Source of the DNA: a virus
Virus record (IMG/VR): IMGVR_UViG_3300029957_000008
Coordinates: 27,977-91,976 of that record
Strand: one strand, 5' to 3'
DNA: 64,000 nucleotides
Program-made: the position numbers and the translations under genes
Notes under the pieces: generated by a model
Databases searched by the model: none
Seen by the model: the letters and a program-made list of their open reading frames with translations, nothing else
Told to the model about the DNA's origin: nothing
In this document: piece after piece, positions 11,241-45,064 of the stretch
How positions within the stretch are numbered: position 1 is the stretch's first letter
Layout of the letters: every line of letters begins with the position of its first letter

Positions 11241-11847
11241 TTGGCTCACTGATTCTGAACGCGCAGCACTAGAAGTCTTCAAGAGGAACTTCCGCAAGGG
11301 CGGTCTAGAGAGCTTCCCCCTCGCCCCGCCCACAGCTATCCAGTTTTTTGCTCTGTATCTCCAAGGTAAGACTCTTACCGAAATTGCCGAACTCAATCCT
11401 CAGTACTCATTAGGCACAATCGTCAATTCTGCGGTCTTAGACCGCTGGGATGCAAAGTATCAGGACTACTTAGAGGAGTTGTATTTCAATGCCAAGAACC
11501 GGGTAGTCCAGACTGCAGCAGAGGGAGTAGGCTTTATCTCTGACCTTCTGGCCGTTACCCACATCAAGGACGGCACCAAACTCAAGAAGTACATTCAGAC
11601 CGAAGATCCTGAGTGCTTGAAGGGTAGCAACTTTGAAATAGCTTCCTTGCGCCAGTACAAAGAGGCCGTGGAAGTGCTTATGAAGCTAACCGGCCAAGAC
11701 AACATCAAGAAGATTCAGGTTTCTGATGTAACTGAGCCAAAACAGCAACTAGAGCCGGAAAAGAAGCCAGAACCTGCGAAGCTGCCTTCTTTGGGGGATC
11801 TGGTAGCTACTCGAAGGAACAAGATCCAGCAGGGTAAGGCGGAGTAA
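11140..11847 (+). CDS. terminase small subunit candidate
   Basis: HTH-like LYLQGKTLTEIAELNP...RW; TAATG-coupled to the large terminase; preceded by CAATCTTTA. Confidence 0.5.
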   Translation: MLENQNPSQQKPLEAEIVSDGSRQEITALDASVSWLTDSERAALEVFKRNFRKGGLESFPLAPPTAIQFFALYLQGKTLTEIAELNPQYSLGTIVNSAVLDRWDAKYQDYLEELYFNAKNRVVQTAAEGVGFISDLLAVTHIKDGTKLKKYIQTEDPECLKGSNFEIASLRQYKEAVEVLMKLTGQDNIKKIQVSDVTEPKQQLEPEKKPEPAKLPSLGDLVATRRNKIQQGKAE

Positions 11848-14887: not shown

Positions 14888-16885
14888 ATGATCAAAAAGA
14901 AAGCTAAGAGCGACGGGGTTGTTTGGGGAGAGACGCCAGAAGAGGCGGCACTTCTAAAGTCCTCCGTTAATGTCAGGACCACAAACAGTCTTACCAAGTC
15001 AATCCTGAACGTTCTAGATGGACCTAATCAGGAAGTTGAGCGGTTAGCTTTCGAAGTAGATCCTACGCGGGTCAATTCGTACGCCAACGTCTACAAGCCT
15101 AAGGCGAGACTACTCCCCGATTCAATCCTGAAGCGAATTGCAATTCAGGACTCCCTTGTTTCGAACATTGTAAGGGCCAGGCAAAATCACGTCTCCATCT
15201 TCGGCCATCCACGGCCGGATCGGTTTAGCTGTGGGTTCGTCATTAGACCAGACACAGGCGTACTTGACTCCCTGAAGGAGCAAGAGAAGCAAGAACTGAA
15301 TGGTAGGATTCAGGTTGCAGTAAAACTTCTGAATACCTGTGGTCATACTGAAGAGGCCAAAGACTATTGTCAAGCTAGCTTTTCGGAATACCTGTCGGTT
15401 TCGGCCAGAGACGCAGTCACTGTTGGCCGTATTGCGACAGAAATTGTGTACAAGACGGACTTAAAGACTGATGAGAAGAAGTTCGTCTACTTTGTGGCTA
15501 CTGATGCCGGTACGATCTACCAGGCAGTTCCTGAGGACAACGCTGCGAAACAGAGCATTCGTGAGCAGGCCTATGACCTGATTGTAAAGGTCACTGGCAA
15601 GAAACAAGTAAGAGAACCTAGAGGGATTCCCCAGCGTTACGACTGGGTGCAGGTTATTGAGGGGACACCCAAGCAGGTCTTCACTTCTGAGGAAATGAAG
15701 TGTCGGAACTTCTACCCGACAAACAACTACGAGTTAGATGGATATCCCGTCACGCCAATTGATACGGTGATGTCAGCCATCACTACGCACATCAACATCA
15801 CGACCCACAACAAGATGTACTTCCAGTCTGGCCGCGCAGCCAGAGGTATGCTTGTCATCAAGTCGGATGATACGAATCCTACTGTAATCCATAACATTAA
15901 GCAGCAGTTCGCCGCGAACATCAATGGAAGTCAGGCAGCTTTCCGAATGCCTATTTTCGGTATCTCCACTGATGCTGATATCAATTGGCAGCCGATGGAT
16001 ACGTCCGGCAGCCGGGACATGGAGTTCCAGTACCTGACTGACTTGAACGCCCGTGAAATTCTCACCGCGTTCATGATGTCTCCCGATGAACTTCCCGGCT
16101 GGTCGTTCTTGAGCCGTGGTACGTCTTCGCAGGCACTCTCGGAGTCCAACAAGGAGTTCCAACTAACAGCCGCTCGCGACGTGGGCATACGCCCCTTATT
16201 GAGCGGGTTTGAAGACTTCATCAACAAGGAAATCTTCCCTCTAATTGATCCTTATCTAGCTAAAATTTGTCGTGTTCAGTTCTTAGGACTAGACGCTGAC
16301 ACACCTGAGAAGGAAATTGTAAACATCCAGCAGAACTCTCAAGTCTGGATGACCTACAACAACATCCTTGAGCGAGTTGAGCAGCCTCTTCTAGACAAAC
16401 GTTGGTGTTCAGAGATTCCGCTCAACCCTGTCTACAAGGGCTACCTAGATAGCTACTTAATGGTCGGTGAGATCATGGAGAAGTTCATGGGTATTGAGGG
16501 AGCGGCCAAGGATCCTCGGTTCCAGTACTTCAGGGATCCTCTCTATTTTCAGTTCCTTCACTTTCAGCAACAACAGCAGCAAATGGCCATGCAACAGCAA
16601 CAGATGCAGCAGCAAGCCCAGCAGCCGCAGCAACAGCCCCAAGATCCAAATGTCCAACAACCTGCTGACCAAAGCAATCAGGGGCCTGAGGACCTAGCTA
16701 GGGGGGTGGACCAAGCCTACGAGCTAATGACCAAGTCTGAGGATAACCTCTCACCTGAGAAGCGTCGGATCCTACATACGCAGAATAAAGCAATGAAATT
16801 TATGATGCAGGGCTTTGAGGACGATGTCAAGGACGCCATCAAGGAAGTCCTGGAAGTTACTAAAAACATAAAACCGAGGAAGTAA
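14888..16885 (+). CDS. portal protein
   Basis: GYPVTPID, YFQSGRAARGML, RDMEF and RDVGIRPLLSGFEDFIN resemble Twort/HK97-type portals; poly-Q near the C-terminus. Confidence 0.9.
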   Translation: MIKKKAKSDGVVWGETPEEAALLKSSVNVRTTNSLTKSILNVLDGPNQEVERLAFEVDPTRVNSYANVYKPKARLLPDSILKRIAIQDSLVSNIVRARQNHVSIFGHPRPDRFSCGFVIRPDTGVLDSLKEQEKQELNGRIQVAVKLLNTCGHTEEAKDYCQASFSEYLSVSARDAVTVGRIATEIVYKTDLKTDEKKFVYFVATDAGTIYQAVPEDNAAKQSIREQAYDLIVKVTGKKQVREPRGIPQRYDWVQVIEGTPKQVFTSEEMKCRNFYPTNNYELDGYPVTPIDTVMSAITTHINITTHNKMYFQSGRAARGMLVIKSDDTNPTVIHNIKQQFAANINGSQAAFRMPIFGISTDADINWQPMDTSGSRDMEFQYLTDLNAREILTAFMMSPDELPGWSFLSRGTSSQALSESNKEFQLTAARDVGIRPLLSGFEDFINKEIFPLIDPYLAKICRVQFLGLDADTPEKEIVNIQQNSQVWMTYNNILERVEQPLLDKRWCSEIPLNPVYKGYLDSYLMVGEIMEKFMGIEGAAKDPRFQYFRDPLYFQFLHFQQQQQQMAMQQQQMQQQAQQPQQQPQDPNVQQPADQSNQGPEDLARGVDQAYELMTKSEDNLSPEKRRILHTQNKAMKFMMQGFEDDVKDAIKEVLEVTKNIKPRK

Positions 16886-22205: not shown

Positions 22206-24389
22206 ATGCTGTGCCCCAACATTAAAGATTCCAAGGGAATGCTCATCGATGGAGTTTTTTCATCGGAGGCCATCGACTCTTCAGGAGAAGTTGTAAAACT
22301 TGAAGGTATTGATATCTCCTCTATGGAAGAGGGGCACGGGGTTGCCAATTACGAGCACAAGGGAATAGACGCTGGAGGCTTTGGCCGGGAGATCGTAGGA
22401 AGGATCATCTACGTCCACAAGGTTTTTAAGGCTTCGGACTGCGAAGATGACCGCCAAAGGATGTTTTGGAAGAAAGTCAAGGAGCAGCCCTTTCTCTACG
22501 GTATGGTCCGGCTTTACGATGCTGCGGGCCACACCGGAGCAGAGGCCCTAGCGGCCCAAATCCGGGATGCTGTCTACCACGATGATGAAATTACGGTTAG
22601 GTACTCCGTAGAGGGTACAACCCTTGAGCGGGATGGAAACATCATTAAGACCTCCATCGCTAGGAAGGTTGCTCTAATCATTGGCCCCTGCAATAAGACC
22701 TGTCTATCCGGTGTGGTTAAAGACACCAACGCCCCTAAGGGATACCAAAAAGAGGACATCGAGAAGTCTGAATTATTGTCCGATCCTTCAAGCCGAAGCA
22801 TCGGTGACGCCCCAGAGTACCAGTACAACCCAATCGTGTCGGATTTTACCAAGAACCCGCTTATTGATCTGGTCCAGAGCTTAGAGCTACTAAAGAGCAT
22901 GACGGCGGGTGGTGGAGACGCAGCCCCTTCTACTCTTACTGGCGGCCAAGCTCTACAAAGGGAAGAGCTAGGTGGCGTCTACAAGAACCACATCGTTGAC
23001 GCCATCAAGGACTACAAAGACCCTTGGGACCACGGTAAGTTTCGAAAGTTTCTAAAAGCTCGGTTGGACAAAGCTGACCTTCCTGAGGTTTCTGACTCGT
23101 TCTTGGACTACTTCATGGGGATCGCCAAGGACTACCAGATTAAGAAGCATCAGGACATTAACCAGGAGTACATTACTAATACTTCGCTGGTTGGCCAAGT
23201 CCATCAGTTAGAAGGATATCTGGTTGAGCTGAGGAAGTCCATCAGAGACGAGCTAGAGGGGTACCAAGTTAGCCTTCCTGAGGTTTACGCCGTCAAGATG
23301 AAGGTGGGTAATGATTACCTACCCGCTGGTCGGTTCATGGTGGTTCAAAACGCAGTCCACCACCTAGAAGACTACCATGGGATCCTAGCAGCTATGATTC
23401 CCGAAGGGCCTTTGGGTGTAGACGGCCAGACTGGAATAGAAGCCCTCAAGATGGTCCCCGAGTTCTCGGTTACCGAGCATCAGATTCCTGAGCCGGTAGC
23501 CAATACAGTACCTGGTATTGTTGGGGTGGTTTCCAACAAGCTTCAAGCCCCACAAAGGGCCGCTGTTTTTGAATATATTCGGCCCGGTATGGGGCAGTCC
23601 CATATTGTTGAGTTTAGTGAGCATGGCGCAGCCCTGGATGGTGAAAAGCTGACAGATGATGAGCTGAATCTCATTGTCTCCAATGTTGAAAGCGGTTTGG
23701 CTACTCTCAAGTGGAAGCAGAATAGCAACCAGGACTTGAGTAAGTCTGACATGGGCGTGCATGAGGCTATGGCTGGTTTAAGAGCGGCCGTATCGGCCGG
23801 ACATGTGCATCCTGATGTCGAAAGGGCGTTTACCAAGCACGTCTTTGAGGACCACATGGTTCCTGGGGTGGGTAATAAGTTCGCTTGGAATGAATTTCAA
23901 CGACAGAACAAGCCAGGAGTACTTGGGTCTATTGATCTTAACTCTTTTAAGCACATTAACGATACTCGCGGCCATATTGCCGGCGATAGCGCGATCAAGG
24001 CCGTTGGTGGGGCACTGAAGAGTGCTGCTGAGAAGGTTGGGACAGTAAAGCTGTTTAGGACTGGTGGAGACGAGTTTGCCATTCACAGCCCTACTCAAGA
24101 AGATGCTCATAGGTTTATGAGAGAAGCAAGGTCTCACATGGCTCAAATACCGCCAGTTGGCGGGGTACATAAGCCATCGTTCAGTATCGGCTTGGGCCAG
24201 GACTTTGGGACGGCAGACAAGGCTTTGTATCTAGCCAAGAAGCAAAAGGTCGATCCTGTGACGGGTAAGAACGCCTATCACCCTGCCAGAACTCCTCACT
24301 TGGGGCACTCTTTGCTGCCAGGATCGGAAGGGCCGATCAATATGTCTGAAGCACCTACGGCTTCGACTGGGTCAAAGGTAGCGGCGTAG
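22206..24389 (+). CDS. prohead serine protease fused to a C-terminal GGDEF diguanylate cyclase domain
   Basis: Protease: DSSGEVV, NYEH, YSVEG, ALIIGPCN. GGDEF: DLNSFKHINDTRGHIAGD, FRTGGDEF (24063-24077), ADKALYLAK. Confidence 0.9.
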   Translation: MLCPNIKDSKGMLIDGVFSSEAIDSSGEVVKLEGIDISSMEEGHGVANYEHKGIDAGGFGREIVGRIIYVHKVFKASDCEDDRQRMFWKKVKEQPFLYGMVRLYDAAGHTGAEALAAQIRDAVYHDDEITVRYSVEGTTLERDGNIIKTSIARKVALIIGPCNKTCLSGVVKDTNAPKGYQKEDIEKSELLSDPSSRSIGDAPEYQYNPIVSDFTKNPLIDLVQSLELLKSMTAGGGDAAPSTLTGGQALQREELGGVYKNHIVDAIKDYKDPWDHGKFRKFLKARLDKADLPEVSDSFLDYFMGIAKDYQIKKHQDINQEYITNTSLVGQVHQLEGYLVELRKSIRDELEGYQVSLPEVYAVKMKVGNDYLPAGRFMVVQNAVHHLEDYHGILAAMIPEGPLGVDGQTGIEALKMVPEFSVTEHQIPEPVANTVPGIVGVVSNKLQAPQRAAVFEYIRPGMGQSHIVEFSEHGAALDGEKLTDDELNLIVSNVESGLATLKWKQNSNQDLSKSDMGVHEAMAGLRAAVSAGHVHPDVERAFTKHVFEDHMVPGVGNKFAWNEFQRQNKPGVLGSIDLNSFKHINDTRGHIAGDSAIKAVGGALKSAAEKVGTVKLFRTGGDEFAIHSPTQEDAHRFMREARSHMAQIPPVGGVHKPSFSIGLGQDFGTADKALYLAKKQKVDPVTGKNAYHPARTPHLGHSLLPGSEGPINMSEAPTASTGSKVAA

Positions 24390-25310: not shown

Positions 25311-26243
25311 ATGGACATGAAAAATCTAACAAAGAAAGGTCTGGAGAAACTCATTGATGATGTTTCTTTGGGTCTTACGGCCGTCTTGGCAAAAGCCGAG
25401 GCGGAAGGCGCTGTTGAAGGACAGACGCTAGCGAAAGCAGACCCAGGGCAGGAAGCTCCTGCGGAAAAGGTCCCTGCTGGTTCGTCTAGCGAAAGTTCCG
25501 ATTCCAGCCCCGCCAAAGAGGAATCTAGTCCTGCAGCCCCGGCCGCAGATGCTAGTCCTGCTGAGGAAACTCCTGGTGAAGTACCTGTTGCAGAAGGGGC
25601 GCCTGCTCCTAGTGCCGAAGGTTCGGAACCAGCAGAAGACACGGGTGGTACGGTTGAGCAGCTTCAGGCTGAATACGCCGCACTTCCTGTCGAGGAACAG
25701 AAGATGCACTTGCTAGCTCTCAAAGCTGCTTTGATGTCGACGTTGGCATCTCAGGGTGGCGAAGGCGATGCCGGTGTTGCTCCTGAAGGTATGCCTGCTC
25801 CAGACGCTTCTGCGGCTCCCGCCGCTCCCGAAGCTGCTGCCCCAGCGCCTGCCCCAGAGCAAACAGAAATGCCTCCGATGGCTAAGTCCGAAGACCGAGC
25901 ACTTGCTCTAGAACTTGAGACCCTTAAGAAGGCCTTGAGTGACAAGGAAGAGATTATTGCAAGCACCAATCAAATGGCGGCTGCTTTCAAGAACTTCCTT
26001 GAGCGAAACAACGGTCGTCGGCTTTCAGTCGCTGCGGCTTCGGTTATGCCGAAGACTCAGACCGACCTAGCCAAGTCAGAAGGTATTGACGTCACCTCTC
26101 TTTCCCCAGTGGAAATCAACCGGAAGCTCACAGAGGTAGCGGCTTCGGGAACCCTCAAGAAATCAGATAAAGACCTCGTCCTTAAGTATGTAGCTGGCAG
26201 GGACAAAAAAGATGTCGGCTCAATCGCACATCTTTTAAAGTAA
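25311..26243 (+). CDS. scaffold/internal head protein
   Basis: Acidic Ala/Pro/Glu-rich with coiled coil; directly before the MCP; many LxK[AS] motifs. Confidence 0.7.
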   Translation: MDMKNLTKKGLEKLIDDVSLGLTAVLAKAEAEGAVEGQTLAKADPGQEAPAEKVPAGSSSESSDSSPAKEESSPAAPAADASPAEETPGEVPVAEGAPAPSAEGSEPAEDTGGTVEQLQAEYAALPVEEQKMHLLALKAALMSTLASQGGEGDAGVAPEGMPAPDASAAPAAPEAAAPAPAPEQTEMPPMAKSEDRALALELETLKKALSDKEEIIASTNQMAAAFKNFLERNNGRRLSVAAASVMPKTQTDLAKSEGIDVTSLSPVEINRKLTEVAASGTLKKSDKDLVLKYVAGRDKKDVGSIAHLLK

Positions 26244-26259: not shown

Positions 26260-27675
26260 ATGAATCCATTGTCGCAAATTCAAGACCTCGTAAAGGCACT
26301 AGAGGCCGGCAACTATGATGCCGCCCCCAGCACACTAGAGCAAGGCTCTGCCCTGCAGATTGAAGACCTCAATCCTGTCATGGTCATGGTCACAGCAGAA
26401 GAAAAACACATTAAGCTCCAGAAGCTGATTCCTGTTGAGTCGTCTAAGTCGACGACTTTTCAGTTCAACCGTCAGCTCTCGGTTGGTATCATGGGTGGCA
26501 GCGCTCAGATGGAAGGTAACGTTGGTCAAGAGGAAACTTCTGACTACGTACGTATCACCATCCCAATGACGTACTACTCGCACATTCGTCGGGTGACTGT
26601 TGCTTCGACCTTGGTTGCCAGCTCTGATGGTAAGAAGTCAGATGAACGGGCGGCTCAGGATGCGGCTAAGAAAGTCTCCTTTGACGTTGAGTTCGACCTC
26701 TTCCGTGGTCTTGAGTGTTTCAGCAACGCCGGTACTTTCGACGGCAACCCGCTGACCACCTCGAACCTTCTCCCCAACATGCATGGCCTTTCGCTCCAGG
26801 TTCGTCAGTCGGACTTCCAGGTGAACAGCCGTGATGCAATGTTCGCCGAGTTCGGTTCGGATCAGACGGTTGTTCTTTCAGCCGGTGGTTCGACTCTAAC
26901 CCAGGGTATCATTGAAGACGGCGCTCTCCGTAGCTCTTTGGGCTTCGGCGAAGCGGACAAGCTCATTGTGGATCCCGTGGTTCTCGCTAACTACAACAAG
27001 ATCACGTTCGGCAAAGAGCGTATCATCCTCGCGGGTAGCCCGCAAGATGCGACTGCCGGTGACCTTCGTCGTCAGTGGGTCTCGGGCGGCACTGTGAACA
27101 TTGAAGCTTCGCAGTTCCTCCGTGGCAAGTTCAAGCCCGCTCCTGTGCGTGCGAACAGCCCCGTGGCTCCTGCTAGCATCACTGTGACCCCGGCTTCGGC
27201 CACCAACCCGACCGGCCTCGCCGCTGGTGTTTATTACTACTTCGCTACCGCTGGTAACGAAGTTGGTGAGTCGGTTGCTTGTACGGCAGTGTCTTCGGGC
27301 AGCGTGACGAAGGACTACAAGGTTACGGTTGTGGTTACCCAGCCCGCGTCTGGCGTCTACCGCTTCTACAACATCTACCGTTCGCCTGTCGGCGGTACGG
27401 CAGCTCAGGCCAAGTTCATTGGTCGCGTTGTTCCGACCCAGGGCTCGTCCACGACTAACTTCGTTGACCTCAACGGCATGAATCCTGCAGCGGTTACTGG
27501 TTACTTCCTTCAGAAGGACGGAGCCAGCATTCGTGAACTGGCTTCTTACAGCCGCCTCAAGCTGGCCGTCTCGGACCTCAGCATGCCGGAAGCTCACTTC
27601 CGCTTCCTGGGCCTAGCGGTTGAGACTCCTCGCAAGTTCGTCCTCATCGACAACTTGAATGGTACCATCAGCTAA
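26260..27675 (+). CDS. major capsid protein (Twort/SPO1-like, with an FN3-like insertion)
   Basis: N-terminal LVKALEAG...GSALQIEDL; YYYFATAGNEVGES and YNIYRS insert; strong RBS; followed by a terminator. Confidence 0.9.
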   Translation: MNPLSQIQDLVKALEAGNYDAAPSTLEQGSALQIEDLNPVMVMVTAEEKHIKLQKLIPVESSKSTTFQFNRQLSVGIMGGSAQMEGNVGQEETSDYVRITIPMTYYSHIRRVTVASTLVASSDGKKSDERAAQDAAKKVSFDVEFDLFRGLECFSNAGTFDGNPLTTSNLLPNMHGLSLQVRQSDFQVNSRDAMFAEFGSDQTVVLSAGGSTLTQGIIEDGALRSSLGFGEADKLIVDPVVLANYNKITFGKERIILAGSPQDATAGDLRRQWVSGGTVNIEASQFLRGKFKPAPVRANSPVAPASITVTPASATNPTGLAAGVYYYFATAGNEVGESVACTAVSSGSVTKDYKVTVVVTQPASGVYRFYNIYRSPVGGTAAQAKFIGRVVPTQGSSTTNFVDLNGMNPAAVTGYFLQKDGASIRELASYSRLKLAVSDLSMPEAHFRFLGLAVETPRKFVLIDNLNGTIS

Positions 27676-27703: not shown

Positions 27704-27729
27704 AAGGCCCGCAAGGGCCTTTTTCTTTT
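27704..27729 (+). terminator. rho-independent terminator
   Basis: AAGGCCC-GCAA-GGGCCTT followed by a T tract. Confidence 0.9.
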
Positions 27730-27793: not shown

Positions 27794-28036
27794 ATGCAAA
27801 CATTGGGAAAGACAGAAAAAGAGAGGGATTTTCTTGCTGGATATCAGGCTGGTGGCATTAATTACCTGAAGGTGGTCGTTGGGATTTTAGAATCCGCCGC
27901 CTCCGAAGTATACGAAGAGGCCTACCCCAAAGAAGAAGACAGGCAAACATACGGTGTGTTGTGTGGGCTGATTAATGATGTGAAAAAAGAAATAAACTAT
28001 ATTATTGCCGAAAGGATTGTAAGTAGTTCTAAATAG
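27794..28036 (+). CDS. hypothetical protein
   Basis: MQTLGK start downstream of a TTGACA element at about 27743. Confidence 0.55.
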   Translation: MQTLGKTEKERDFLAGYQAGGINYLKVVVGILESAASEVYEEAYPKEEDRQTYGVLCGLINDVKKEINYIIAERIVSSSK

Positions 28037-28926: not shown

Positions 28927-29352
28927 ATGAAGCTTTCGGCACGTCCTCTCATTGATGTTTCGTCTGTTAACGACTACGGTACGTCCGAACAGTTAGAGAT
29001 GACGGCCGGTGACAGCCCCACTCTTTACCTGCAACTCATTGATTTAGAAAAGAATCTAGCCAAATACGGCTACGAGCCGGCAGGGCTAAGGTATATGCCC
29101 CTGGCGACCACAACGCCTACCTTGGCTGTTACCTTTACCCATATTGACGACGCCAAGCAGTTCACCAGATTTGCCACACAGCCCTTTACTCAGGATCCTT
29201 CGATTTGGGCCTGTCCAATCCTAGCAAGCGATCCAATTGCCGGCACCGTTACAATCAAGTGTGTTTTGACTGAAAACAAAGGCACCTCCCTAGCCCCTAT
29301 TCCGGTTCAGAAGACCTTTACGATGCACGCTGCAGTGCTGGTTGGCGTATAA
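28927..29352 (+). CDS. virion structural protein
   Basis: Late motif ends just upstream; precedes the neck gene. Confidence 0.55.
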   Translation: MKLSARPLIDVSSVNDYGTSEQLEMTAGDSPTLYLQLIDLEKNLAKYGYEPAGLRYMPLATTTPTLAVTFTHIDDAKQFTRFATQPFTQDPSIWACPILASDPIAGTVTIKCVLTENKGTSLAPIPVQKTFTMHAAVLVGV

Positions 29353-30199
29353 TATGGCTGATTTCTCAAATTCCAAGGACGGCTTAGGTCGGGTTCTATC
29401 AGAGAACGCGGTTGCCGTCCAGTGGGAGGACTTAGAACCCCTCCTTTCTCCCCAACAGCTGATCAGGCTCCATCTCTTTGGTCTACCCCTCGTTTCTGGT
29501 GTAAGGAATCCTATCACCAGAAAATTTGACGTAATGACGAGCGATATTCTCAAGGAGCATATTCTCAATGCGATTGCCCTTGCGGAAGAGGAAGCCAGGA
29601 TTGACATCTTCCCTCGTCAGTACAAGGAGAAGCAGGCGTTCGACAGAGTAGCCTATCAGAACTTTGGCTACTTTCAACTGCGCCACCTTCCTGTAGACAG
29701 CATCCAAGACCTCGTAGTTGCTACCTCGTCTGAAGACCAAGTCTATAGAGTCCCCTTGGACTGGATCGACGTGGGATATCTCAGGCAAGGGCAGATGAAC
29801 ATTCTACCCCTAACCCTCAAGATTCAAAACGGTGTTATGTCCCCTCTTTTGGCCGGTCCAGGCGGCAGCGCCTTCCTGGCCATCTTTGGGAACTATCCAT
29901 GGCTGGCTTCTTTCTGGGAGGTTTTCTACACTACCGGCTTCAAGGATGGAACGCTCCCTAAGATCGTCAATCAGTACATCGGCACCATTGCGGCCATGGA
30001 GGTCATCTCGGCCCTGGCCGCAACCTATTCAAGGACAACTTCCAATAGCTTGAATATTGATGGTTTAGGACAGTCGATTTCTGGTCCTGGTCCTGAGCTG
30101 TATAAGACCCGACTGAACGATCTTGAAGTGAAGCGCAAGATGCTCTGTGGCCGCCTCAAGAACCGCCTTGGAGTCGGAATTTTAGTGAATAACGTTTAA
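29342..30199 (+). CDS. head-tail adaptor/neck protein
   Basis: AIALAEEEARIDI, YTTGF and SLNIDGLGQSIS, typical of Twort-like adaptors. Confidence 0.75.
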   Translation: MAYNMADFSNSKDGLGRVLSENAVAVQWEDLEPLLSPQQLIRLHLFGLPLVSGVRNPITRKFDVMTSDILKEHILNAIALAEEEARIDIFPRQYKEKQAFDRVAYQNFGYFQLRHLPVDSIQDLVVATSSEDQVYRVPLDWIDVGYLRQGQMNILPLTLKIQNGVMSPLLAGPGGSAFLAIFGNYPWLASFWEVFYTTGFKDGTLPKIVNQYIGTIAAMEVISALAATYSRTTSNSLNIDGLGQSISGPGPELYKTRLNDLEVKRKMLCGRLKNRLGVGILVNNV

Positions 30200-33100
30200 A
30201 TGGATCAAGACACCAAACCCAAGGAGTTTTCTGTCGTCATCATTTCTGATGGCCAAGGGAAAGTTCTGTTTGGCAAGCGAAACGACAATAAGAAGTGGAC
30301 GTTGGCTGCAGGCGGCCTTAATCCGGGCGAAACGCCCGAAGAAGGAGCCTTAAGAGAAATGTTCGAGGAGACAGGGTTAAGACCGAAGAAGCTGTCCTTT
30401 GTAACGACAAAAAAGACTCCCAACAATACAGTCCACTTCTTCTCATGTCAATGCCCCGGTGAGCCTACTACCGAAAACGATCCCGACAAGGAATGCTCCA
30501 AGCTTCAATGGGTTGATGTTCGTGGTGGAGTCCCTTCCAACATATGGAACAACCTCCATGGTCCAAAGGGCGATGAAAACATCGTAAGACAAGTCTACGA
30601 CCTCAAGAAGTCGGAGCAAGTTTGGCTAGAGGATTGTGGATTCCTAGACCTATCTAAGTCAGAAAACGAGTCAGAGGTTTCGACACTTCTAAGGCACCCA
30701 AATCCCTCTGAACGATCTCTAGCCCTTAAGCTCAACACCGTCACACCTCACGATCTAGCCGTGGCTATCCTAGATCCAGATCCTAAGGTCTGGGGAACGG
30801 CGTTTGACCACAAAGATGCTACCCACGCTCACACAATTCTCTCTTCTAATACTAGGGATGCTGCGGGAAACCCTCTTTGGGAACGACACAACCTGCTACT
30901 AAAAGACCCCAGGTTCAATAAAGAGCATCTTACGCTCATGGCTCATGCCGTCCGCAAAGACTCCTCGTTATCCCCTAAAGACCAAGCTGACAGACTTAAG
31001 GTCTTGGCCCTCAATGGGTACTCGGATCTCAAGAAGTCTTCTGCGTGGGCACATCATCTGTTATACGCAGGTTCCACCCAAGGACAAGATCTTGCCGACT
31101 CAAGTGCCGAACCTGTTCACGAGACCCTAAAGCCTCTCAAACACGAGTATGAATCGGCTCTATCGTCTGAGGACGCTATTGAGCCGCACAACGCTGGTTT
31201 GCATGACATTGGCCAGGTGTCTCATAAGGTGGTCTACAAGGTTGGATCTAACAAGCTCATGGTGAAGCCCTATGCCGAAGAAGAACAGCCTTTGTCTGGT
31301 TGGTCTGAAGGGGCTTCTCAAGCTATCTACCATGCCGCCGGTTTGGGACACCTACATCAAAGGTCCTTTGTGTCCCATCACGGCGGTGGGAAGTACAACA
31401 TTCCGGCTACTGTGATTCATTTGGATGCTGAGGCAACGCCTATCCATAAGGCTCCCTTAGGGACAGTCAGGGAGCAGAATCCGGCTTTGGATGACGAAGC
31501 CAGGAAGATGTCTGTGATGGACTTCCTTACGGCGAACCACGACCGGCACACCAACAACCTCATGGTCCAAAAGAACGGCCATTTGTTGGCCGTGGATAAC
31601 GCCAGTGCGTTTGGAAGCCACCCGTACACATTTCCTTACTACACCAATAAGGGTGTAAGCGTAGTTCTTGGAAAAAATCATGACATGCTGCCTGAAGGGA
31701 AGCAGGCCTATACACGGCTATTAGCCGATTGGTGGCCTGGGATTAGTACGGATGTGAAGTCTGAGCTGAATAAGCGGGTCGCCCAGATTAAGCACCCGGC
31801 TCACAGTCGGAGAATCAAGGAGGCCTTTGACCAAAGGGCTGCTTGGCTAGACCGAAAGTCTCAGGAAGCCAAAGCTGGAAATGTTAGTGGGTTTGATGAC
31901 TTTGCTCCTGCTCCGTTAGAGAAAAGGATGGAGGAAGCCGAGTTTCTTGGCGATCACCCTAAGATGAAAATCGAAGGGTTGCACGAGAATCTTTTGGACA
32001 AGCACCCGGCGTCAATGAACGCCGACGTAGAGCACTTTGAGAAGAACGTCAATACCTCTAAGCACAATGTACGCCCTTTGAAGGAGAAGCTCAAGGGGGC
32101 CGACATGAAGGCTGTTTACGGCCATGCGGATAAGAAGTACTTGGTTAAGCCGTCTGTTTTCAATAATGAAGAGCTGACCCACCTCAATACGCCACTTTCT
32201 GCCTGGTCAGAGCTTACACACCAGGCGATGTACCACGCTGGTGGTATCGGACACCTACACCAGAAGGTTCATGCCACTGTTGCCAAGAATGTGTTTCCTG
32301 ATGCTCATGGGCTCGTAGTCCACATGGAGCCAGGAGCCAAGGAAGTCCGGGAGCTTAATGATAAGGAGAAGACTGCGCTAACCAACCATCCTGACTTCAA
32401 GAAGATCCCCTTTATGGACTTTGTGACTTTTAACAAGGACCGTCACGAAGGAAATCTGATGGTTAAGCCTGACGGTACTCCGCTTGCGATTGACCACAGT
32501 CTTGTTTTTGGGAAAGACGCCGACTCCAAGTTCTCCTTAGAGAACCAAGATCTGCATTATGAAGAGCCGGGGTATGGATTCAGAACGCCTATGCAGACTG
32601 CGTCCAAACCGGATGCTAGCACTTGGGCTTGGTGGGACGCAAACAAAGACAAGATCAAAGAGTCTTTCCACAAGCACGCGGACCTTATTCCTCACAAAGA
32701 GACCCGGAACAGACTAAAAGACTCGTTCAACTACAGAATGGACATGCTGGAAGATGGCGCTACGCCCATGGGCCAGCCAATTAGGGAAGGCCTACATAAG
32801 ACACTTGAAGGTGCTGACTTCCTTCATAAACAGCACGATCAGCCGTCTTTAATCAAGCCCATCAACGTTGCTGGCGTCCATGACAAGCTCAAGGTCTCTA
32901 CTCCTGACGCCATAAAGATTCACAGGCAGAAGTTTGAGCTTGGGTTAAATCAGCACCCAACTGTGGCTAAGCCTGTAATGAGCTACGATCCTTCGGTCAA
33001 GCGAACACTTGCAGGTGAAGAACCTAAGGCTATCTACAAGATGGGCAATGACCACGTAATGGTTAAACCCCAGGCCGCTCCAACATCAAGGCTTTCGGCC

Positions 33101-33979
33101 TGGAACGAAATGACTTCCCAGGCGATGTACCACGCTGGAGGTATTGGGCATCTACACCAGAAGGTTCACGCAACAACTTTGGCCAATCAGGGGGGTAAGA
33201 CTGTTCTTGGCAAGGACCCCCACGCAATCGTGGTGCACATGGCGCCTAACGTCCGACCCGTTTCGGAGGCATTGAAGGACGATCAAGATACCAGCTTAGA
33301 CAGCATGGCCAGCAATCCAGAACACCTACAGTCTCTCAAGAAAATCGGGGTTATGGACTGGTTGACATCGAATCCTGATAGGCATGAGGGGAATATTATG
33401 ATTGCTCCCGATGGGTCTCCCTTGGCTATCGATCACGGTCGAGCTTTTTCAAGCGATAGAGTTCACGCTTTTGGTGGTGAGTATGATCGTGATTTGGAGG
33501 CTCAAGGTCGAATTGCTTTGGCCGGACACCTCAATCACCCCGACATGCCTAAGGCGACCAGTCAAATTATGGAAAGTGTTGGGAAGCAAAAGGCTTGGGA
33601 CGAAGCTGTGAACAAAGACCCTCACAAGCAGTTGGATGGGTTTGACAATTTTAGTGGGTATGGTGGTGGAGACTTTTTCTCCGACGCCACCAAAATGGGC
33701 GGATCCCCAGATGAGGAAACCTGGAACTGGTTTGACGCAAACAAAGATAAAATGCATGAGGCTTTTAGGAAGCACGCTAACATGCTCCCCGACCAAGACG
33801 CCCGAAACAAAATGATGGGGTCGTTTAATGTCAGGATGGAACACCTAAAGCAAGTTCGAGAGAATAGCCGAGGTAAGGATCCTAACAAGTTAGATGTTCA
33901 AAACCACTCACCCGTAGCTTATCGGCCTACGGCCCCAAGCATGGTTGAATCTCATCCAACGGAAAGAAGGGTAGCCTAA
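30200..33979 (+). CDS. polyprotein: NUDIX hydrolase + helical domain + three PI3/PI4K-HipA-like kinase domains
   Basis: Nudix box GGLNPGETPEEGALREMFEETGL. Three VKP...E...DRH[TE][NG]N...[VI]D[HN] units with catalytic loops at 31541, 32438 and 33377. Confidence 0.85.
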   Translation: MDQDTKPKEFSVVIISDGQGKVLFGKRNDNKKWTLAAGGLNPGETPEEGALREMFEETGLRPKKLSFVTTKKTPNNTVHFFSCQCPGEPTTENDPDKECSKLQWVDVRGGVPSNIWNNLHGPKGDENIVRQVYDLKKSEQVWLEDCGFLDLSKSENESEVSTLLRHPNPSERSLALKLNTVTPHDLAVAILDPDPKVWGTAFDHKDATHAHTILSSNTRDAAGNPLWERHNLLLKDPRFNKEHLTLMAHAVRKDSSLSPKDQADRLKVLALNGYSDLKKSSAWAHHLLYAGSTQGQDLADSSAEPVHETLKPLKHEYESALSSEDAIEPHNAGLHDIGQVSHKVVYKVGSNKLMVKPYAEEEQPLSGWSEGASQAIYHAAGLGHLHQRSFVSHHGGGKYNIPATVIHLDAEATPIHKAPLGTVREQNPALDDEARKMSVMDFLTANHDRHTNNLMVQKNGHLLAVDNASAFGSHPYTFPYYTNKGVSVVLGKNHDMLPEGKQAYTRLLADWWPGISTDVKSELNKRVAQIKHPAHSRRIKEAFDQRAAWLDRKSQEAKAGNVSGFDDFAPAPLEKRMEEAEFLGDHPKMKIEGLHENLLDKHPASMNADVEHFEKNVNTSKHNVRPLKEKLKGADMKAVYGHADKKYLVKPSVFNNEELTHLNTPLSAWSELTHQAMYHAGGIGHLHQKVHATVAKNVFPDAHGLVVHMEPGAKEVRELNDKEKTALTNHPDFKKIPFMDFVTFNKDRHEGNLMVKPDGTPLAIDHSLVFGKDADSKFSLENQDLHYEEPGYGFRTPMQTASKPDASTWAWWDANKDKIKESFHKHADLIPHKETRNRLKDSFNYRMDMLEDGATPMGQPIREGLHKTLEGADFLHKQHDQPSLIKPINVAGVHDKLKVSTPDAIKIHRQKFELGLNQHPTVAKPVMSYDPSVKRTLAGEEPKAIYKMGNDHVMVKPQAAPTSRLSAWNEMTSQAMYHAGGIGHLHQKVHATTLANQGGKTVLGKDPHAIVVHMAPNVRPVSEALKDDQDTSLDSMASNPEHLQSLKKIGVMDWLTSNPDRHEGNIMIAPDGSPLAIDHGRAFSSDRVHAFGGEYDRDLEAQGRIALAGHLNHPDMPKATSQIMESVGKQKAWDEAVNKDPHKQLDGFDNFSGYGGGDFFSDATKMGGSPDEETWNWFDANKDKMHEAFRKHANMLPDQDARNKMMGSFNVRMEHLKQVRENSRGKDPNKLDVQNHSPVAYRPTAPSMVESHPTERRVA

Positions 33980-33982
33980 GTG

Positions 33983-34011
33983 TTGACTTTTTGTAACGGT
34001 ATTGATATAGT
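33983..34011 (+). promoter_or_regulatory. sigma70-type promoter
   Basis: TTGACT-N17-TATAGT with TGA extension. Confidence 0.7.
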
Positions 34012-34019
34012 AGGACAAA

Positions 34020-34205
34020 ATGACTATTAAGGTCTATCACGCATCGAATAACTCAACCAAAAGCTACTCCGGGAGCCCTGAACAGGTTCTTGAGCAGTTG
34101 ATGGCTACCTATACGTTCCTCAAGCGCTATCCAACCCATTCCTTGGCTTGCGCGTTGAAGAACCTAGGTCGGCAGCAGAATTACTTCGTTGAGATCGAGG
34201 AATAG
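34020..34205 (+). CDS. small protein paralogous to the N-terminal domain of the downstream kinase
   Basis: KVYH...KSYSGSPEQV...LKNLGRQQN versus TVHN...QVYEGTEQDV...VKDLDRSQN. Confidence 0.65.
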   Translation: MTIKVYHASNNSTKSYSGSPEQVLEQLMATYTFLKRYPTHSLACALKNLGRQQNYFVEIEE

Positions 34206-35527
34206 TGCAAGTCACAGTCCACAACCACTTCAACGACCAGAAGCAGGTCTACGAAGGCACCGAACAGGATGTTCGATTTGAAATCTTTAATGATTTCCCG
34301 TATTTACTATCTAAATACGGTTCGGACGCCAATGTAGATCTTCTAGTTAAGGACCTTGATCGTTCCCAGAACCTTTCTGCCGTGATTTCTTCAATCACCC
34401 TAGCAAAAACCGAGGTAGAGCTACCTCAAACTCCTGAAGCTCAGTTCTTCCCCAAGGACCAGTATCTAGAACTGGTAAGGGAAGCCGCAGAGTTCCTGTC
34501 TGGCATTCCATGTGACAAAGAAATGCTACGCAGGACTCTCCAGGAGAACGATGGCGACGAGAAGGTTGCTTGTCTGGTATCTGTAGGTCTGGAGCCCTCT
34601 GAAGCCAACCTAGCGGCCCTAAGGGCCGTAATGAACGTTAGGTTAGCCAAGTCTGAAGAAGAGCCAATTGTCTTTAGTAAAGTTGAGGCTTTTAGTGATT
34701 CTGGCACAGATTTTGCCGAGATGATTAAAAGGGCCGTTACGGCCCAAACTATTAAGGAAATTCAATTCAAGGCCGGCAAGCATTCCAAGGGAACACTCCT
34801 AGCCAAGGACCCAGAGACCTTCACGCAGTTACTATTAAAGCCAGGAGCTGGCAAGCAAAATCCTGCACTTGGAGAAAGCCAAGTTCAAGCGTCCCAGAGC
34901 GTCCGGGAAGCGGCGTTTTACGCCGTAGCGGACGCATGGGGACTGGCCAAAGACCTGCCAGAGTGCAAGCTGCTGTATATTGACGATCAAGAGTATGCGG
35001 CTATGCAGTTTCTACCCCAGAAGTGGGTTAACGGCAACGATCTAAGGCGACAGGATCCCAATGCAGCCAGAAGATACCTGAGCCCCTACTTGATTCAGGG
35101 AGATGTCCATCGTTGGGCTGTATTAGACTATATTTTGGCCAATCCGGACAGGAACGCTGGAAATATCATGTTCCGGGATGGCCATATCAAGCTGATTGAC
35201 CATGGGTCGGCTTTGGCCGGGATCGACTTCAGTCCAGCTATTGACAACCACGCCTTTGTTCCTTACTACCTAAGAGTTTTTGCTTCTGGCGGTTTTGGCA
35301 AGATGGAGCCAGAGCAACGTCTGAAGGCGCTACCTCGACTGAATTCTGAGGGCGAAAAGAAGCTGGCCGAGTGGATTGGTAGGCTCAACAAGGAAGTCGT
35401 ACAAAAGATTCTAATTCCCTACGGGATCGATCCCACTCCTGAATTGGCTAGGTTGGAACTGTTGAAATTTGCGTGCAGTGTCCAGTCGGCCGATTTGGCT
35501 GTGTTAAGTGTGTGGACGATAGGATAG
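34205..35527 (+). CDS. PI3/PI4K-HipA-like kinase with N-terminal accessory domains
   Basis: GKHSKG, LLKPG, REAAFY, DYILANPDRNAGNIM and LIDHGSAL. Confidence 0.85.
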   Translation: MQVTVHNHFNDQKQVYEGTEQDVRFEIFNDFPYLLSKYGSDANVDLLVKDLDRSQNLSAVISSITLAKTEVELPQTPEAQFFPKDQYLELVREAAEFLSGIPCDKEMLRRTLQENDGDEKVACLVSVGLEPSEANLAALRAVMNVRLAKSEEEPIVFSKVEAFSDSGTDFAEMIKRAVTAQTIKEIQFKAGKHSKGTLLAKDPETFTQLLLKPGAGKQNPALGESQVQASQSVREAAFYAVADAWGLAKDLPECKLLYIDDQEYAAMQFLPQKWVNGNDLRRQDPNAARRYLSPYLIQGDVHRWAVLDYILANPDRNAGNIMFRDGHIKLIDHGSALAGIDFSPAIDNHAFVPYYLRVFASGGFGKMEPEQRLKALPRLNSEGEKKLAEWIGRLNKEVVQKILIPYGIDPTPELARLELLKFACSVQSADLAVLSVWTIG

Positions 35528-42568: not shown

Positions 42569-45064
42569 ATGGCCACACCGCTGTCCGCATTCCAAACTCC
42601 GACCACTTCGGGCCGGGCTGCGCTTGCCGATTTGCCAGTTGATTCTCAAGGCCTCCTAACCCTTGCTGCAGACAATGCCGCTTTAGAGACCCCAGACGAC
42701 AAGTTCTGGCCATCCCCCACTTTTGACATCGTCAAGTGGAACAAGCTCTACCCCTACCAGCTCATAGTAGTTGACGCCACAAAAGACTCTTCAGGCAACG
42801 TTAAGTATGCTCAGCACGGCAAGGCAGCCTTTACTCTTCCATTTCCTCCAGAGTCCCTAAGACGAACCAAGCCCATCGCCATGAACTTGACGGTGACTCT
42901 TGGTGGTGTGGTCGAAGAGTCCAACGGCGCTCCAATCGAGTACTTGTCCTTGAGCGGCACCACAGGTCACCTCCCCTCAAGATCTACCTCTCCAGACAAT
43001 CAACCTCTCAAGAATCTTGACAACCTTACAGGCGGCTTCATCCAGGGCACAATCAACCAGCTTGCTGGCACCCTAACAGACCTAGCCTCTTTCACCAAGA
43101 CGTTCTTCGCCAACGCCAACAACGTCCACCTAGAGTCCGACTTTACTCCAGACTCAAGACTATCTAAGACTTCAGGCTACTACCAGATTAACCTCCTAAG
43201 GAAGTTCCTAGAGAAGTACATCGCAGCCAAGAAAACGGCCACGGGCCGATCTTTACGGCTGGCATTTGCAATGTGGAAGGATTCTGAAGTACTTTTAGTA
43301 ACCCCTTCAGTTTTCGTCACAACCAAAGACGTCTCCTCGCCAGTAGAGGCAAGGTACTCCATGGAGTTAAAAGCCTGGAAGAGAATTACCCTAGGAGTCA
43401 GTGATTCTTCCTTTCAAGCACCTACACCTATCAGGAACAGCCCGTCAACCCTGGCCCGTGCCATCAACACTCTTTCCAACGCCAGGAAGATAGTCCAGGA
43501 CATTGGCAACATCCCCCAAGCCGTTCTTGGCGATGTGACTCATATCAATGAGGTCTTTCGCCAAAGTATCGGCTTTTGCAAGGACATTGCTGGAACCATC
43601 CAGACCTTTGCGGACTTCCCGTCCAACGTCAAGGAGTCTATTGTCAACAAGGTATATGAGGACGGAAGAGACTTCAAGCAGGCAGGTAGGCAGATATCTA
43701 GCAGCTCCAGCAACCTGAAGAAGAACTGGCTAGATCAGTCCTCGCCTTCTACACCTACCAATAAGAGTGTAATAAAGAGATCCAACAATCCAGTAATCAA
43801 AGGCATCCAGCAAAAGGGCTTTGACGACAAGACTCTAGACACCCTTTTGCCCTACATGAATGCTTCTGACAAGTCCAATATCACGGCCGATACGGCCCGA
43901 TTGAGGGGGTTGGTAAGGGCTGACTTTGAACGACTTAGGGATGACCTAAAGGCCTTCTCTGCACGACTAGCGTTTATCCTGGGTGCTGGCAATGAAACGT
44001 ATCGAGACACCTATGGGCTTGGGGCGATAGCTCCCATCAAAAAAGAGCCCACAGATAGTGACTGGGATCTCCTATACGCCCTGAACGACTCCTTGAGTGT
44101 CCTGGACTCCTTGGCGGCAACTGGTAATGGTGAGCCTTCTGAGCCAGCTCGACTGATGGACAATATGGCCACGTTGGCCAGGGGTTCGGGAATTGCCTTC
44201 AAGGTGCCAGTCAGCAAGTTTGCGGTGCCGTTCCCTTACGGTATTACACTTGAGGCTTTGGCATCTAAATACCTTGGCGACCCGAATAGGGCGCTCGAAA
44301 TCATCACCCTTAATGGGCTCAGAGAGCCCTATGTGGATGAGCTAGGGTTTGACCTGCCATTCCTAGTAAACGGTAGTGAGAACACAGCTATTGTCCAGTA
44401 CACAACGAACCTATATGTAGGTCAGCGTGTGCACGTTGGATCCAACGGGGTTACCCGAACCAACAGGAAGATCTCGGGGCTTACCAAGACTTTGGATGGC
44501 AAGCTGGAAGTAACCCTGGACGGAGACAGGGATCTGAACAGGTACCGGGTTAATGACGGCGCGGTCTTGCACGCCTATCTGCCTGACACCATCAACTCCC
44601 AGCAGCTGGTCTACATTCCGTCTGACCAAGACGCCCTGGACAACGAGTATCTAACCAAGGACATTCCAACGGTCGATACGACCGATCCTATGGTAGTGGC
44701 TGGTGGGGTGGACCTTCTACTTGATTCTCAAAAGAATCTAGTGATCACACCTGAGGGAGATAGTCCATACGCGACTGGACTAACTAACATCATTCAGGGT
44801 GTACAAATAGCTTTTGCCGTCAACCAAGGCAAACTACCTTTACACAAAGGATTTGGTTTGCCTGTAAAGGTCGGGGACAGCGTAGCGGATATCAACGCCA
44901 CTTCCATTGTGAAGGCCGTCCGAGACATGCTCCAGAACGACTCATCGTTTTCTAGCGTGGACATGGTGAAGGTAAGGATCAACGGTAACAGTGCCCGTAT
45001 TGATACTTCGGCCACAGTGGCCGGCACCAGTGCGCCGTTACCTTTGAGTTTTGGGATTGGGTGA
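42569..45064 (+). CDS. baseplate protein with LysM-like and gp25-like C-terminal domains
   Basis: TLEALASKYLGDPNRALEIITLNGL; GLTNIIQ...GKLPLHKGFG. Confidence 0.65.
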   Translation: MATPLSAFQTPTTSGRAALADLPVDSQGLLTLAADNAALETPDDKFWPSPTFDIVKWNKLYPYQLIVVDATKDSSGNVKYAQHGKAAFTLPFPPESLRRTKPIAMNLTVTLGGVVEESNGAPIEYLSLSGTTGHLPSRSTSPDNQPLKNLDNLTGGFIQGTINQLAGTLTDLASFTKTFFANANNVHLESDFTPDSRLSKTSGYYQINLLRKFLEKYIAAKKTATGRSLRLAFAMWKDSEVLLVTPSVFVTTKDVSSPVEARYSMELKAWKRITLGVSDSSFQAPTPIRNSPSTLARAINTLSNARKIVQDIGNIPQAVLGDVTHINEVFRQSIGFCKDIAGTIQTFADFPSNVKESIVNKVYEDGRDFKQAGRQISSSSSNLKKNWLDQSSPSTPTNKSVIKRSNNPVIKGIQQKGFDDKTLDTLLPYMNASDKSNITADTARLRGLVRADFERLRDDLKAFSARLAFILGAGNETYRDTYGLGAIAPIKKEPTDSDWDLLYALNDSLSVLDSLAATGNGEPSEPARLMDNMATLARGSGIAFKVPVSKFAVPFPYGITLEALASKYLGDPNRALEIITLNGLREPYVDELGFDLPFLVNGSENTAIVQYTTNLYVGQRVHVGSNGVTRTNRKISGLTKTLDGKLEVTLDGDRDLNRYRVNDGAVLHAYLPDTINSQQLVYIPSDQDALDNEYLTKDIPTVDTTDPMVVAGGVDLLLDSQKNLVITPEGDSPYATGLTNIIQGVQIAFAVNQGKLPLHKGFGLPVKVGDSVADINATSIVKAVRDMLQNDSSFSSVDMVKVRINGNSARIDTSATVAGTSAPLPLSFGIG

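Follow-up and report, generated by a model that had tools for sequence, protein, structure and literature searches.

The gene at positions 30200-33979 of a 64,000-nucleotide stretch of viral DNA is a single uninterrupted open reading frame (ORF) encoding a protein of 1259 residues. The stretch (hereafter the window) spans positions 27,977 to 91,976 of IMG/VR record IMGVR_UViG_3300029957_000008, a 92-kb virus record judged 56% complete. Behind an N-terminal NUDIX domain, the protein carries a helical domain, which is conserved, followed by three kinase modules, here termed K1, K2, and K3 (Table 1). The closest cultured phage is Myxococcus phage Mx1 (OR576727.2), a 169.6-kb myovirus (PMC10720576). 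We present evidence that the 1259-residue protein is probably a polyvalent effector polyprotein that an Mx1-like myovirus packs into its capsid, cleaves into pieces, and injects.

Pfam assigns residues 10-107 to NUDIX (PF00293; 3e-19, 69.7 bits against a cut-off of 21.1) and three stretches to PI3_PI4_kinase (PF00454; 1e-26, 94.7 bits against 27.1), with weaker overlapping matches to Fam20C and ABC1. These assignments bear out an initial annotation, made from the sequence alone, which had read a NUDIX domain and three kinases of the PI3K/HipA superfamily in one gene. The Nudix box, G-x5-E-x7-R-E-U-x-E-E-x-G-U, is complete at residues 38-60, where it is legible in GGLNPGETPEEGALREMFEETGL, and it is kept in orthologues. 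Sequence matches in the PDB are to RppH (5e-8). Membership of the RppH-type RNA pyrophosphohydrolases was rejected, with the RppH equivalog models of NCBIfam reaching at best 44.5 bits against a cut-off of 241 and the Nudix-box half alone aligning. The helical domain (residues 156-275) precedes the first-type kinase across the whole family and has no match in Pfam or NCBIfam. Whole-gene blastn against 50,697 phage records returned zero matches; tblastn of the whole protein against phage records matched only the NUDIX part of Mx1, and tblastn of K2 alone gave no match.

Each kinase module carries a VKP lysine, a W[SN]E motif, a DRHxxN loop, and a VDN or IDH motif, as initially described. Across these three modules and a fourth, deeply divergent one in the next gene, the ATP-binding lysine, the D-R-x-x-x-N loop, and the metal-binding aspartate are invariant. 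Among 42 family members, the D, R, and N of the loop are likewise invariant, while conservation of the K, the E, and the second D is 90% or higher. The family also has its own signature, Q-x-x-Y-H-A-x-G-x-G-H-L-H-Q, most positions of which are at least 90% conserved in the 42 distant members. The three kinases retain all catalytic residues and thus, judged by motif, are catalytically intact. K3 is distinguished by a long insert following IDH. The next gene matches PI3_PI4_kinase in Pfam (1.3e-7, 32.2 bits against a threshold of 27.1).

AlphaFold (AF2) models were built with family alignments for the K2 span (residues 600-880; predicted local distance difference test [pLDDT] 79, predicted template modelling score [pTM] 0.82) and for the helical domain with K1 (residues 140-575; pLDDT 90, pTM 0.70), the helical part exceeding a pLDDT of 90. 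The initial annotation had named structure prediction and Foldseek as one check on its kinase assignment, and both modules are modelled with the two-lobed fold of phosphatidylinositol (PI) kinases. The best PDB match for each is human type II PI 4-kinase, PI4KIIalpha (4pla/4hnd), aligned over both lobes: Z 17.4 over 249 residues with a root-mean-square deviation of 3.9 Å for K1 (4pla), and Z 17.2 over 250 residues at 3.5 Å for K2. Foldseek agrees. H. pylori CtkA comes next (Z 15.1 for K1 and 13.8 for K2), then Legionella HipT (7wcf; 13.4 and 12.8, respectively), with Fam20, CotH, actin-fragmin kinase, and HipA at Z 11-13. As modelled, the kinases are structurally closest to type II PI 4-kinase, within the PI3K/PI4K-HipA-CtkA superfamily. 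Sequence identity of K1 and K2 to PI4KIIalpha is, however, just 12-14%, and there is no sign of a lipid substrate.

The superfamily is shared with HipA/HipT and CtkA, which are Ser/Thr protein kinases acting on cellular targets. Unlike HipA and HipT, the window protein has no Pfam HipA_C match at E ≤ 1 and no antitoxin partner, and its kinases bear the signature given above, which sets them apart from CtkA as well. Elsewhere in the family, one homologue reaches HipA_2 (31.1 bits against 27), and the Mx1 kinase scores 21.8 bits against the HipA_C threshold of 30.5.

The domains are joined by linkers that carry a recurrent L-x-K motif. In the orthologue alignment, every domain border has a conserved L-x-K-[ST/R] site, which reads GLHKTLEGADFLH at the border between K2 and K3. 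The sites sit in coil or low-pLDDT segments of both AF2 models. Among 68 inter-kinase linkers, taken from non-orthologous family members only, 46 contain L-x-K-[ASTK]-[LMVI], against 1.5 expected and a maximum of 7 in 1000 shuffles. All five L-x-K sites of the Mx1 polyvalent protein lie outside Pfam domains (5 versus 1.5 expected, p 0.012). Sites also fall between Pfam domains in two uncultured relatives, L003 (a 171.7-kb IMG/VR record) and G001 (a 163.5-kb contig), and L003 has an equivalent site after its NUDIX domain.

The same motif is enriched in head proteins. L-x-K-[AST] sites conserved in four Mx1-like phages occur three times in a scaffold-like protein, at the capsid N-terminus (DLVKALEAGNY), and once downstream of the protease domain of the prohead protease; two neighbouring proteins have no site conserved across the four phages. 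The scaffold-like protein has 5 such sites versus 0.75 in shuffled sequences, and the protease fusion 4 versus 0.68. Prohead proteases act within the prohead. Together, the sequence motifs suggest that the linker sites are cut by the prohead protease. A DUF7768 protein encoded in the head cluster also has 3 L-x-K-[AST] sites (0.29 expected) and may be a further capsid cargo.

There is precedent for such processing. Prohead proteases are known to use a single short motif to trim proteins of the capsid and scaffold as well as ejected ones, as in the gp245 substrates of phage SPN3US (PMC10052503). There, the motif is common to head-internal, capsid, and scaffold proteins, as it is here; the SPN3US portal also bears it, and trimming takes place inside the prohead before ejection. 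The two systems differ in that the SPN3US motif ends in glutamate, whereas here it would be L-x-K followed by A, S, or T. Furthermore, whole enzyme domains would separate here, not propeptides only.

The protease and capsid proteins also resemble each other around their sites. Just past the protease domain, the protease fusion contains LELLKSMTAGGGDAAPSTLTGGQALQ (22881-22962), which is close to DLVKALEAGNYDAAPSTLEQGSALQ at the capsid N-terminus (26287-26365). The same pairing is seen in Mx1, with KAMEAGNFNAAPSTL in the protease and LRKAMEAGNFNAKPSTL in the capsid protein. This shared stretch may be a common cleavage or docking element.

Table 1. Features of the NUDIX-kinase gene and its surroundings, in window coordinates (PSSM, position-specific scoring matrix).
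Feature	Position	Strand	Basis or remark
Whole gene, polyvalent protein P0001	30200..33979	+	Single uninterrupted ORF, 1259 residues; translation
NUDIX hydrolase domain, residues 1-130, complete Nudix box	30200..30589	+	Pfam PF00293, 3e-19
Linker with two conserved L-x-K-S sites, DLKKSE (residue 134) and DLSKSE (residue 150)	30596..30664	+	Kept in 8 orthologues
Conserved helical domain, residues 156-275	30665..31024	+	Columns invariant in 30 homologues
DLKKSS site ahead of K1; K279 invariant in 30 homologues	31025..31042	+	In coil between two AF2-model helices
Kinase module K1, residues 302-574, "first" type: VKP K355, WSE, DRHTNN at 448, VDN	31103..31921	+	Alignment, AF2
K1-K2 linker motif PLEKRMEEAEFL, residues 573-584	31916..31951	+	Kept in orthologues
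Kinase module K2, residues 590-855, "middle": VKP K649, WSE, DRHEGN at 747, IDH	31967..32764	+	Alignment, AF2
K2-K3 linker motif GLHKTLEGADFLHK, residues 864-877	32789..32830	+	Top PSSM match in the window, 29.3 bits; pLDDT below 50 in K2 model
Kinase module K3, residues 890-1230, "last" type: VKP K955, WNE, DRHEGN at 1060, IDH	32867..33889	+	Alignment, tree
Next gene, 440 residues, fourth deeply divergent kinase module at residues 197-440 (DRNAGN, IDH)	34205..35527	+	Pfam, tree
Large terminase	11847-13889		Context annotation
Portal	14888-16885		Context annotation
Prohead protease fused to another enzyme domain	22206..24389	+	Protease part 42% identical to Mx1-type protease
Scaffold-like protein, 310 residues, no family match, 5 L-x-K-[AST] sites	25311..26243	+	Just upstream of capsid gene
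Major capsid protein, N-terminus with conserved DLVKALEAGNY	26260..27675	+	52% identical to Mx1 capsid protein
DUF7768 / nucleoside 2-deoxyribosyltransferase-like protein, 187 residues	28085-28648		In head cluster
Baseplate	42569-45064		Context annotation
Tail sheath	53932-56445		Context annotation

A search of a large protein collection retrieved 70 long homologues. Six of them are orthologues (54-68% identity) with the same architecture as the 1259-residue protein. In the others, a variable front end precedes a constant core, made up of the helical domain, a first-type kinase, and a last-type kinase; the front end carries ART-PolyVal in P0018, PBECR5 with GNAT in P0036 and P0051, and LRV repeats in P0070. 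Module number varies among the 195 retrieved proteins (119 with one, 48 with two, 22 with three, and one with five), and in 164 of 190 proteins the last module ends no more than 60 residues from the C-terminus. The largest array seen is that of P0081 (1687 residues), with five tandem modules. An exhaustive profile search returned 2188 cluster representatives at E ≤ 1e-3, of which 107 reached E ≤ 1e-30. Lengths range from about 200 to 3184 residues. Individual members have been automatically annotated as NUDIX hydrolase, kinase, or PI3K/PI4K domain proteins.

We find that the family looks almost wholly phage-borne, as far as sequence searches reach. Scans of IMG/VR found 5 loci with the protein as query and 7 with the module alignment. 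A scan of GTDB species genomes, which used one peptide pattern and had limited sensitivity, found a sole locus: the contig G001, which is phage-like and was binned with a Myxococcales metagenome-assembled genome. Weak matches to the catalytic-loop region were all that appeared in 300 other genomes of the same phylum, and in just 17 of them. This single locus on a phage-like contig, with weak matches elsewhere, is why the family proper looks phage-borne.

The domains at the variable front ends tie the family to a known class of phage protein. In the study by Iyer, Burroughs, Anand, de Souza, and Aravind (2017, PMC5512222), ART-PolyVal and PBECR5 are signature domains of polyvalent proteins, defined from virion-associated members. 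Homologues with the helical-kinase core carry both (ART-PolyVal in P0018, PBECR5 in P0036 and P0051), and the Mx1 relative has ART-PolyVal. Like the polyvalent proteins so described, the window protein is a long multi-enzyme phage polypeptide encoded among head genes, and loading into the virion and injection with the DNA are predicted for both. Its NUDIX, helical, and three kinase domains also place it within the 2-15 distinct domains per polypeptide that characterize the class. The kinase described in that study is of a different sort: it is Ser/Thr/Tyr-type, has lost its whole C-terminal subdomain, and comes from prophages of Verrucomicrobia and Bacteroidetes, whereas the window modules keep both lobes and fall under PI3_PI4_kinase. 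Membership of that polyvalent kinase group was rejected, since the C-lobe helices of our models align with PI4KIIalpha over about 250 residues. PI3K is not mentioned in that study, and the passages searched contain neither tandem arrays of two to five such kinases nor linkers resembling prohead-protease sites. Literature searches turned up no paper on this kinase family in phages, on its tandem arrays, on its fusion to the prohead protease, or on the linker motif. As a kind, the polyvalent head-delivered effector protein is already known, and this kinase family within it is without a characterized member. The polyvalent nature of the protein, its domain-swapping relatives, the fourth kinase module, and the likely site of action in the next host after capsid delivery were all absent from the initial annotation.

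The setting of the gene is shared with other phages. Its placement in a late, structural cluster, as initially annotated, is borne out by the terminase, portal, protease, capsid, baseplate, and sheath genes around it. The gene sits between the capsid gene and the baseplate and sheath genes, and it keeps this position in Mx1, in the IMG/VR relatives L003 and L008, and in G001, all of which share the gene layout. In Mx1, the capsid genes are followed by a gene for about 285 residues, then by WNM70333 ("NUDIX hydrolase", 1479 residues; GNAT, ART-PolyVal, and NUDIX) and WNM70334 ("kinase", 619 residues; a PI3_PI4_kinase match). This gene order resembles that of the window, and the stand-alone kinase WNM70334 belongs to the clade of the window's fourth module. 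Mx1 differs in that its polyvalent protein has no detectable kinase module, whereas that of the window carries three. In addition, a kinase-like module ends the Mx1 prohead protease (WNM70322), where the window protease bears another enzyme domain. In L003 (9998-18472), a 1949-residue NUDIX...kinase protein is followed by two kinase genes of about 440 residues that belong to different clades. Kinase paralogue number and placement therefore vary between sister phages.

Several smaller features of the neighbourhood were also recorded. The start of the gene adjoins the stop of the ORF upstream, as the initial annotation had stated: the ATG at 30200 abuts ORF 29342-30199 with zero gap. The initial annotation had called that ORF a neck gene; its sole match is to PHROG 772 "tail fiber protein" (1.4e-15). 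The 310-residue protein ahead of the capsid gene is probably the scaffold. A strong terminator-like hairpin at 27704-27721, on both strands, lies directly 3' of the capsid gene, as is typical for highly expressed capsid genes. Around the NUDIX-kinase gene, promoter-like and terminator-like sites are no commoner than in shuffled sequence (12 versus 8.4 and 10 versus 10.0, respectively); one promoter-like sequence, TTGACT-17-TATAGT preceded by TG, occupies 33983-34011, in the gap that separates the polyprotein gene from the genes after it. The N-terminal region of the fourth kinase protein bears LAKT and LAKSEEE sites. That a 61-residue ORF at 34020-34205 copies the N-terminus of that kinase is not supported: BLASTP gave no alignment between the two at E ≤ 100, and by eye the resemblance is no more than a loose pattern.

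The case for packaging is indirect and draws on related proteins in other phages. In Mx1, the "putative prohead protease" WNM70322 is a 1239-residue fusion (L015 8003-11722), and its G001 counterpart has 1280 residues (L023 1924-5766). Over roughly the first 300 residues they share 42% identity with the window protease, and each ends in a divergent kinase-like module that is matched by the family hidden Markov model (E 1.5e-7 and 6e-11) and keeps the catalytic loop and metal-binding aspartate (DRNDGNYML...HIDNA; DRHQGNFML...LIDHG). In G001, a separate 487-residue GGDEF protein comes after the protease-kinase fusion. The best structural matches in BFVD are large fusions annotated as portal, head morphogenesis (MuF), ADP-ribosyltransferase, or Nudix proteins. 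Nudix and ADP-ribosyltransferase domains that lie in late clusters or are fused to MuF or portal proteins have been argued to be packaged in the head (PMC9503650). An alternative is that the protein is made late and stays unpackaged, acting in the producing cell, where phosphorylation of phage or host proteins might time assembly or lysis and the NUDIX domain would clean the nucleotide pool. A gene in a late-type cluster that abuts its upstream neighbour would suit this role, the sequence holds no proof of packaging, and Pfam finds no MuF, portal, ART-PolyVal, or PBECR domain in the 1259-residue protein itself. We nonetheless regard it as improbable, given the kinase-like module fused to the prohead protease of Mx1 and G001, the same-fold domains that other phages attach to their portal and MuF proteins, the virion-associated signature domains carried by relatives, and a linker motif common to the capsid N-terminus, the scaffold-like protein, and the protease.

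A different question is whether the kinase modules are near-redundant. The initial annotation had read near-identical DNA in K2 and K3 as a fairly recent duplication, by which one kinase would have been amplified into copies that are now diversifying their targets. The two modules do share a stretch (QAMYHAGGIGHLHQ) with 19 identical residues and 81% DNA identity over 83 nt, and K2 joins the K3-type group in the module tree. The rest of the comparison contradicts recency. BLASTP identity is 32% for K1/K2, 38% for K1/K3, and 37% for K2/K3; a MAFFT alignment of K2 and K3 gives 44.6% amino acid identity over 258 columns, with 53% at the nucleotide level. Synonymous sites are scrambled: the same codon is used at 54 of 115 identical residues, and even within the 19-residue stretch 7 codons differ synonymously. 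Because this stretch is the family-wide signature, present in the 42 distant members, its similarity reflects constraint and not recency. In a tree of 76 modules from 43 proteins (support by the Shimodaira-Hasegawa-like approximate likelihood ratio test, SH-aLRT), modules cluster by position and not by protein. All 24 "first" modules form one clade (98), K3 falls within the "last" modules of other proteins (99), and K2 groups with orthologous middle modules (100), joined to the K3-type group (87). The fourth module, the Mx1 "kinase" gene, and the L003 and L008 neighbours together form a clade that branches deeply (100). Judged by these sequence comparisons, the K2 duplication is older than orthologues that are now 55% identical, and the split between first and last modules is older than the whole polyvalent family. 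The low identity, the scrambled synonymous sites, and the tree led us to reject both a recent duplication giving K2 and K3 and gene conversion between them; amplification of one kinase into near-redundant copies is thus hardly credible, its timing being refuted by the tree and the codon comparison.

The nature of the kinase substrate bears on a further alternative, which is compatible with capsid delivery: the modules may be lipid or small-molecule kinases that, in place of proteins, modify a host membrane lipid (an inositol or other hydroxyl lipid, for instance) or a metabolite as the phage enters or takes over the cell. PI4KIIalpha leads the structural matches of both modelled modules, by 2-3.5 Z over the best protein kinase, and Pfam assigns the modules to PI3_PI4_kinase. 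The DRHxxN loop and the IDH or VDN motif presumably resemble those of type II PI 4-kinases. Against this, the other close structural neighbours (CtkA, HipT/HipA, Fam20, CotH, and actin-fragmin kinase) are all protein kinases. Phosphoinositides are not known from most bacteria. In PI kinases, lipid specificity is set by the segment that follows IDH; in the window modules this segment varies and has low confidence. Three or four old paralogues also suit several protein targets better than one lipid. We therefore consider lipid or small-molecule substrates rather unlikely. Protein substrates are the likelier because all bacterial structural neighbours are protein kinases, and the long co-retention of three or four paralogues argues for different targets.

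Under capsid delivery as we propose it, the polyprotein would be built into the prohead, where the prohead protease would cut it at the L-x-K-[AST] linker sites. This would release separate NUDIX (~15 kDa), helical (~14 kDa), K1 and K2 (~33 kDa each), and K3 (~44 kDa) pieces, which would leave the capsid with the DNA and enter the next host. The internal proteins of phage T4 are comparable, being head-internal, processed, and ejected. Once inside, the kinases would phosphorylate host targets ahead of any phage gene expression. These targets would most likely be proteins, as for CtkA and HipA/HipT, and each of the three or four old paralogues would have distinct ones. The NUDIX domain would remove either a signal derived from nucleotides or a group at the 5' end of RNA. 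A broader possibility, which we put forward tentatively, is that Mx1-like capsids carry a signalling kit, made up of an L-x-K-cut NUDIX and three distinct kinases of the type II PI4K-like sort, together with the fourth kinase and, on the protease, a cyclase or another kinase, all co-injected to rewrite host phosphorylation and nucleotide signalling before expression begins; at least one paralogue might target a lipid.

A number of points weigh against capsid delivery in this form. Packaging and cleavage are inferred, and the 1259-residue protein itself lacks MuF, portal, and ART-PolyVal domains. The polyprotein's own L-x-K-[AST] count (4 versus 1.7 expected, p 0.09) is not significant alone, the motif was partly defined after inspection, and one good PSSM match falls in the tail sheath. 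A lipid kinase heads the structural matches, which leaves a protein substrate as the likelier guess. The NUDIX substrate is not readable from sequence, even the best-scoring RppH models being far under their cut-offs. Finally, the host is inferred solely from the 52% capsid identity to Mx1 and one binned contig.

Phage kinases that act on the host are known. The T7 kinase gp0.7 phosphorylates many host proteins early in infection and was recently shown to weaken many bacterial defence systems at once (PMC13645617). The initial annotation had suggested a T7-like role for the window kinases; the precedent of a phage kinase that disarms its host stands, while any kinship does not, the sequences being unrelated and the fold nearest type II PI 4-kinase. 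The likeness is thus one of functional analogy only: gp0.7 belongs to an unrelated family, has a single kinase domain, and is expressed early instead of being carried in the capsid. Mx1 itself escapes an island encoding CBASS (a cyclic-oligonucleotide-based antiphage signalling system) and CRISPR (clustered regularly interspaced short palindromic repeats) that stops phage Mx4, and its authors suspect extra countermeasures in the large Mx1 genome (PMC11506125). This escape is compatible with our proposal and is not evidence for it.

If the proposal holds, a capsid-carried set of kinases would act from the first second of infection, unlike the T7 kinase, which depends on expression. The L-x-K cleavage code, if real, would make capsid cargo readable from sequence across a clade of phages. 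Mx1 is in culture and carries the family, so these predictions are directly testable.

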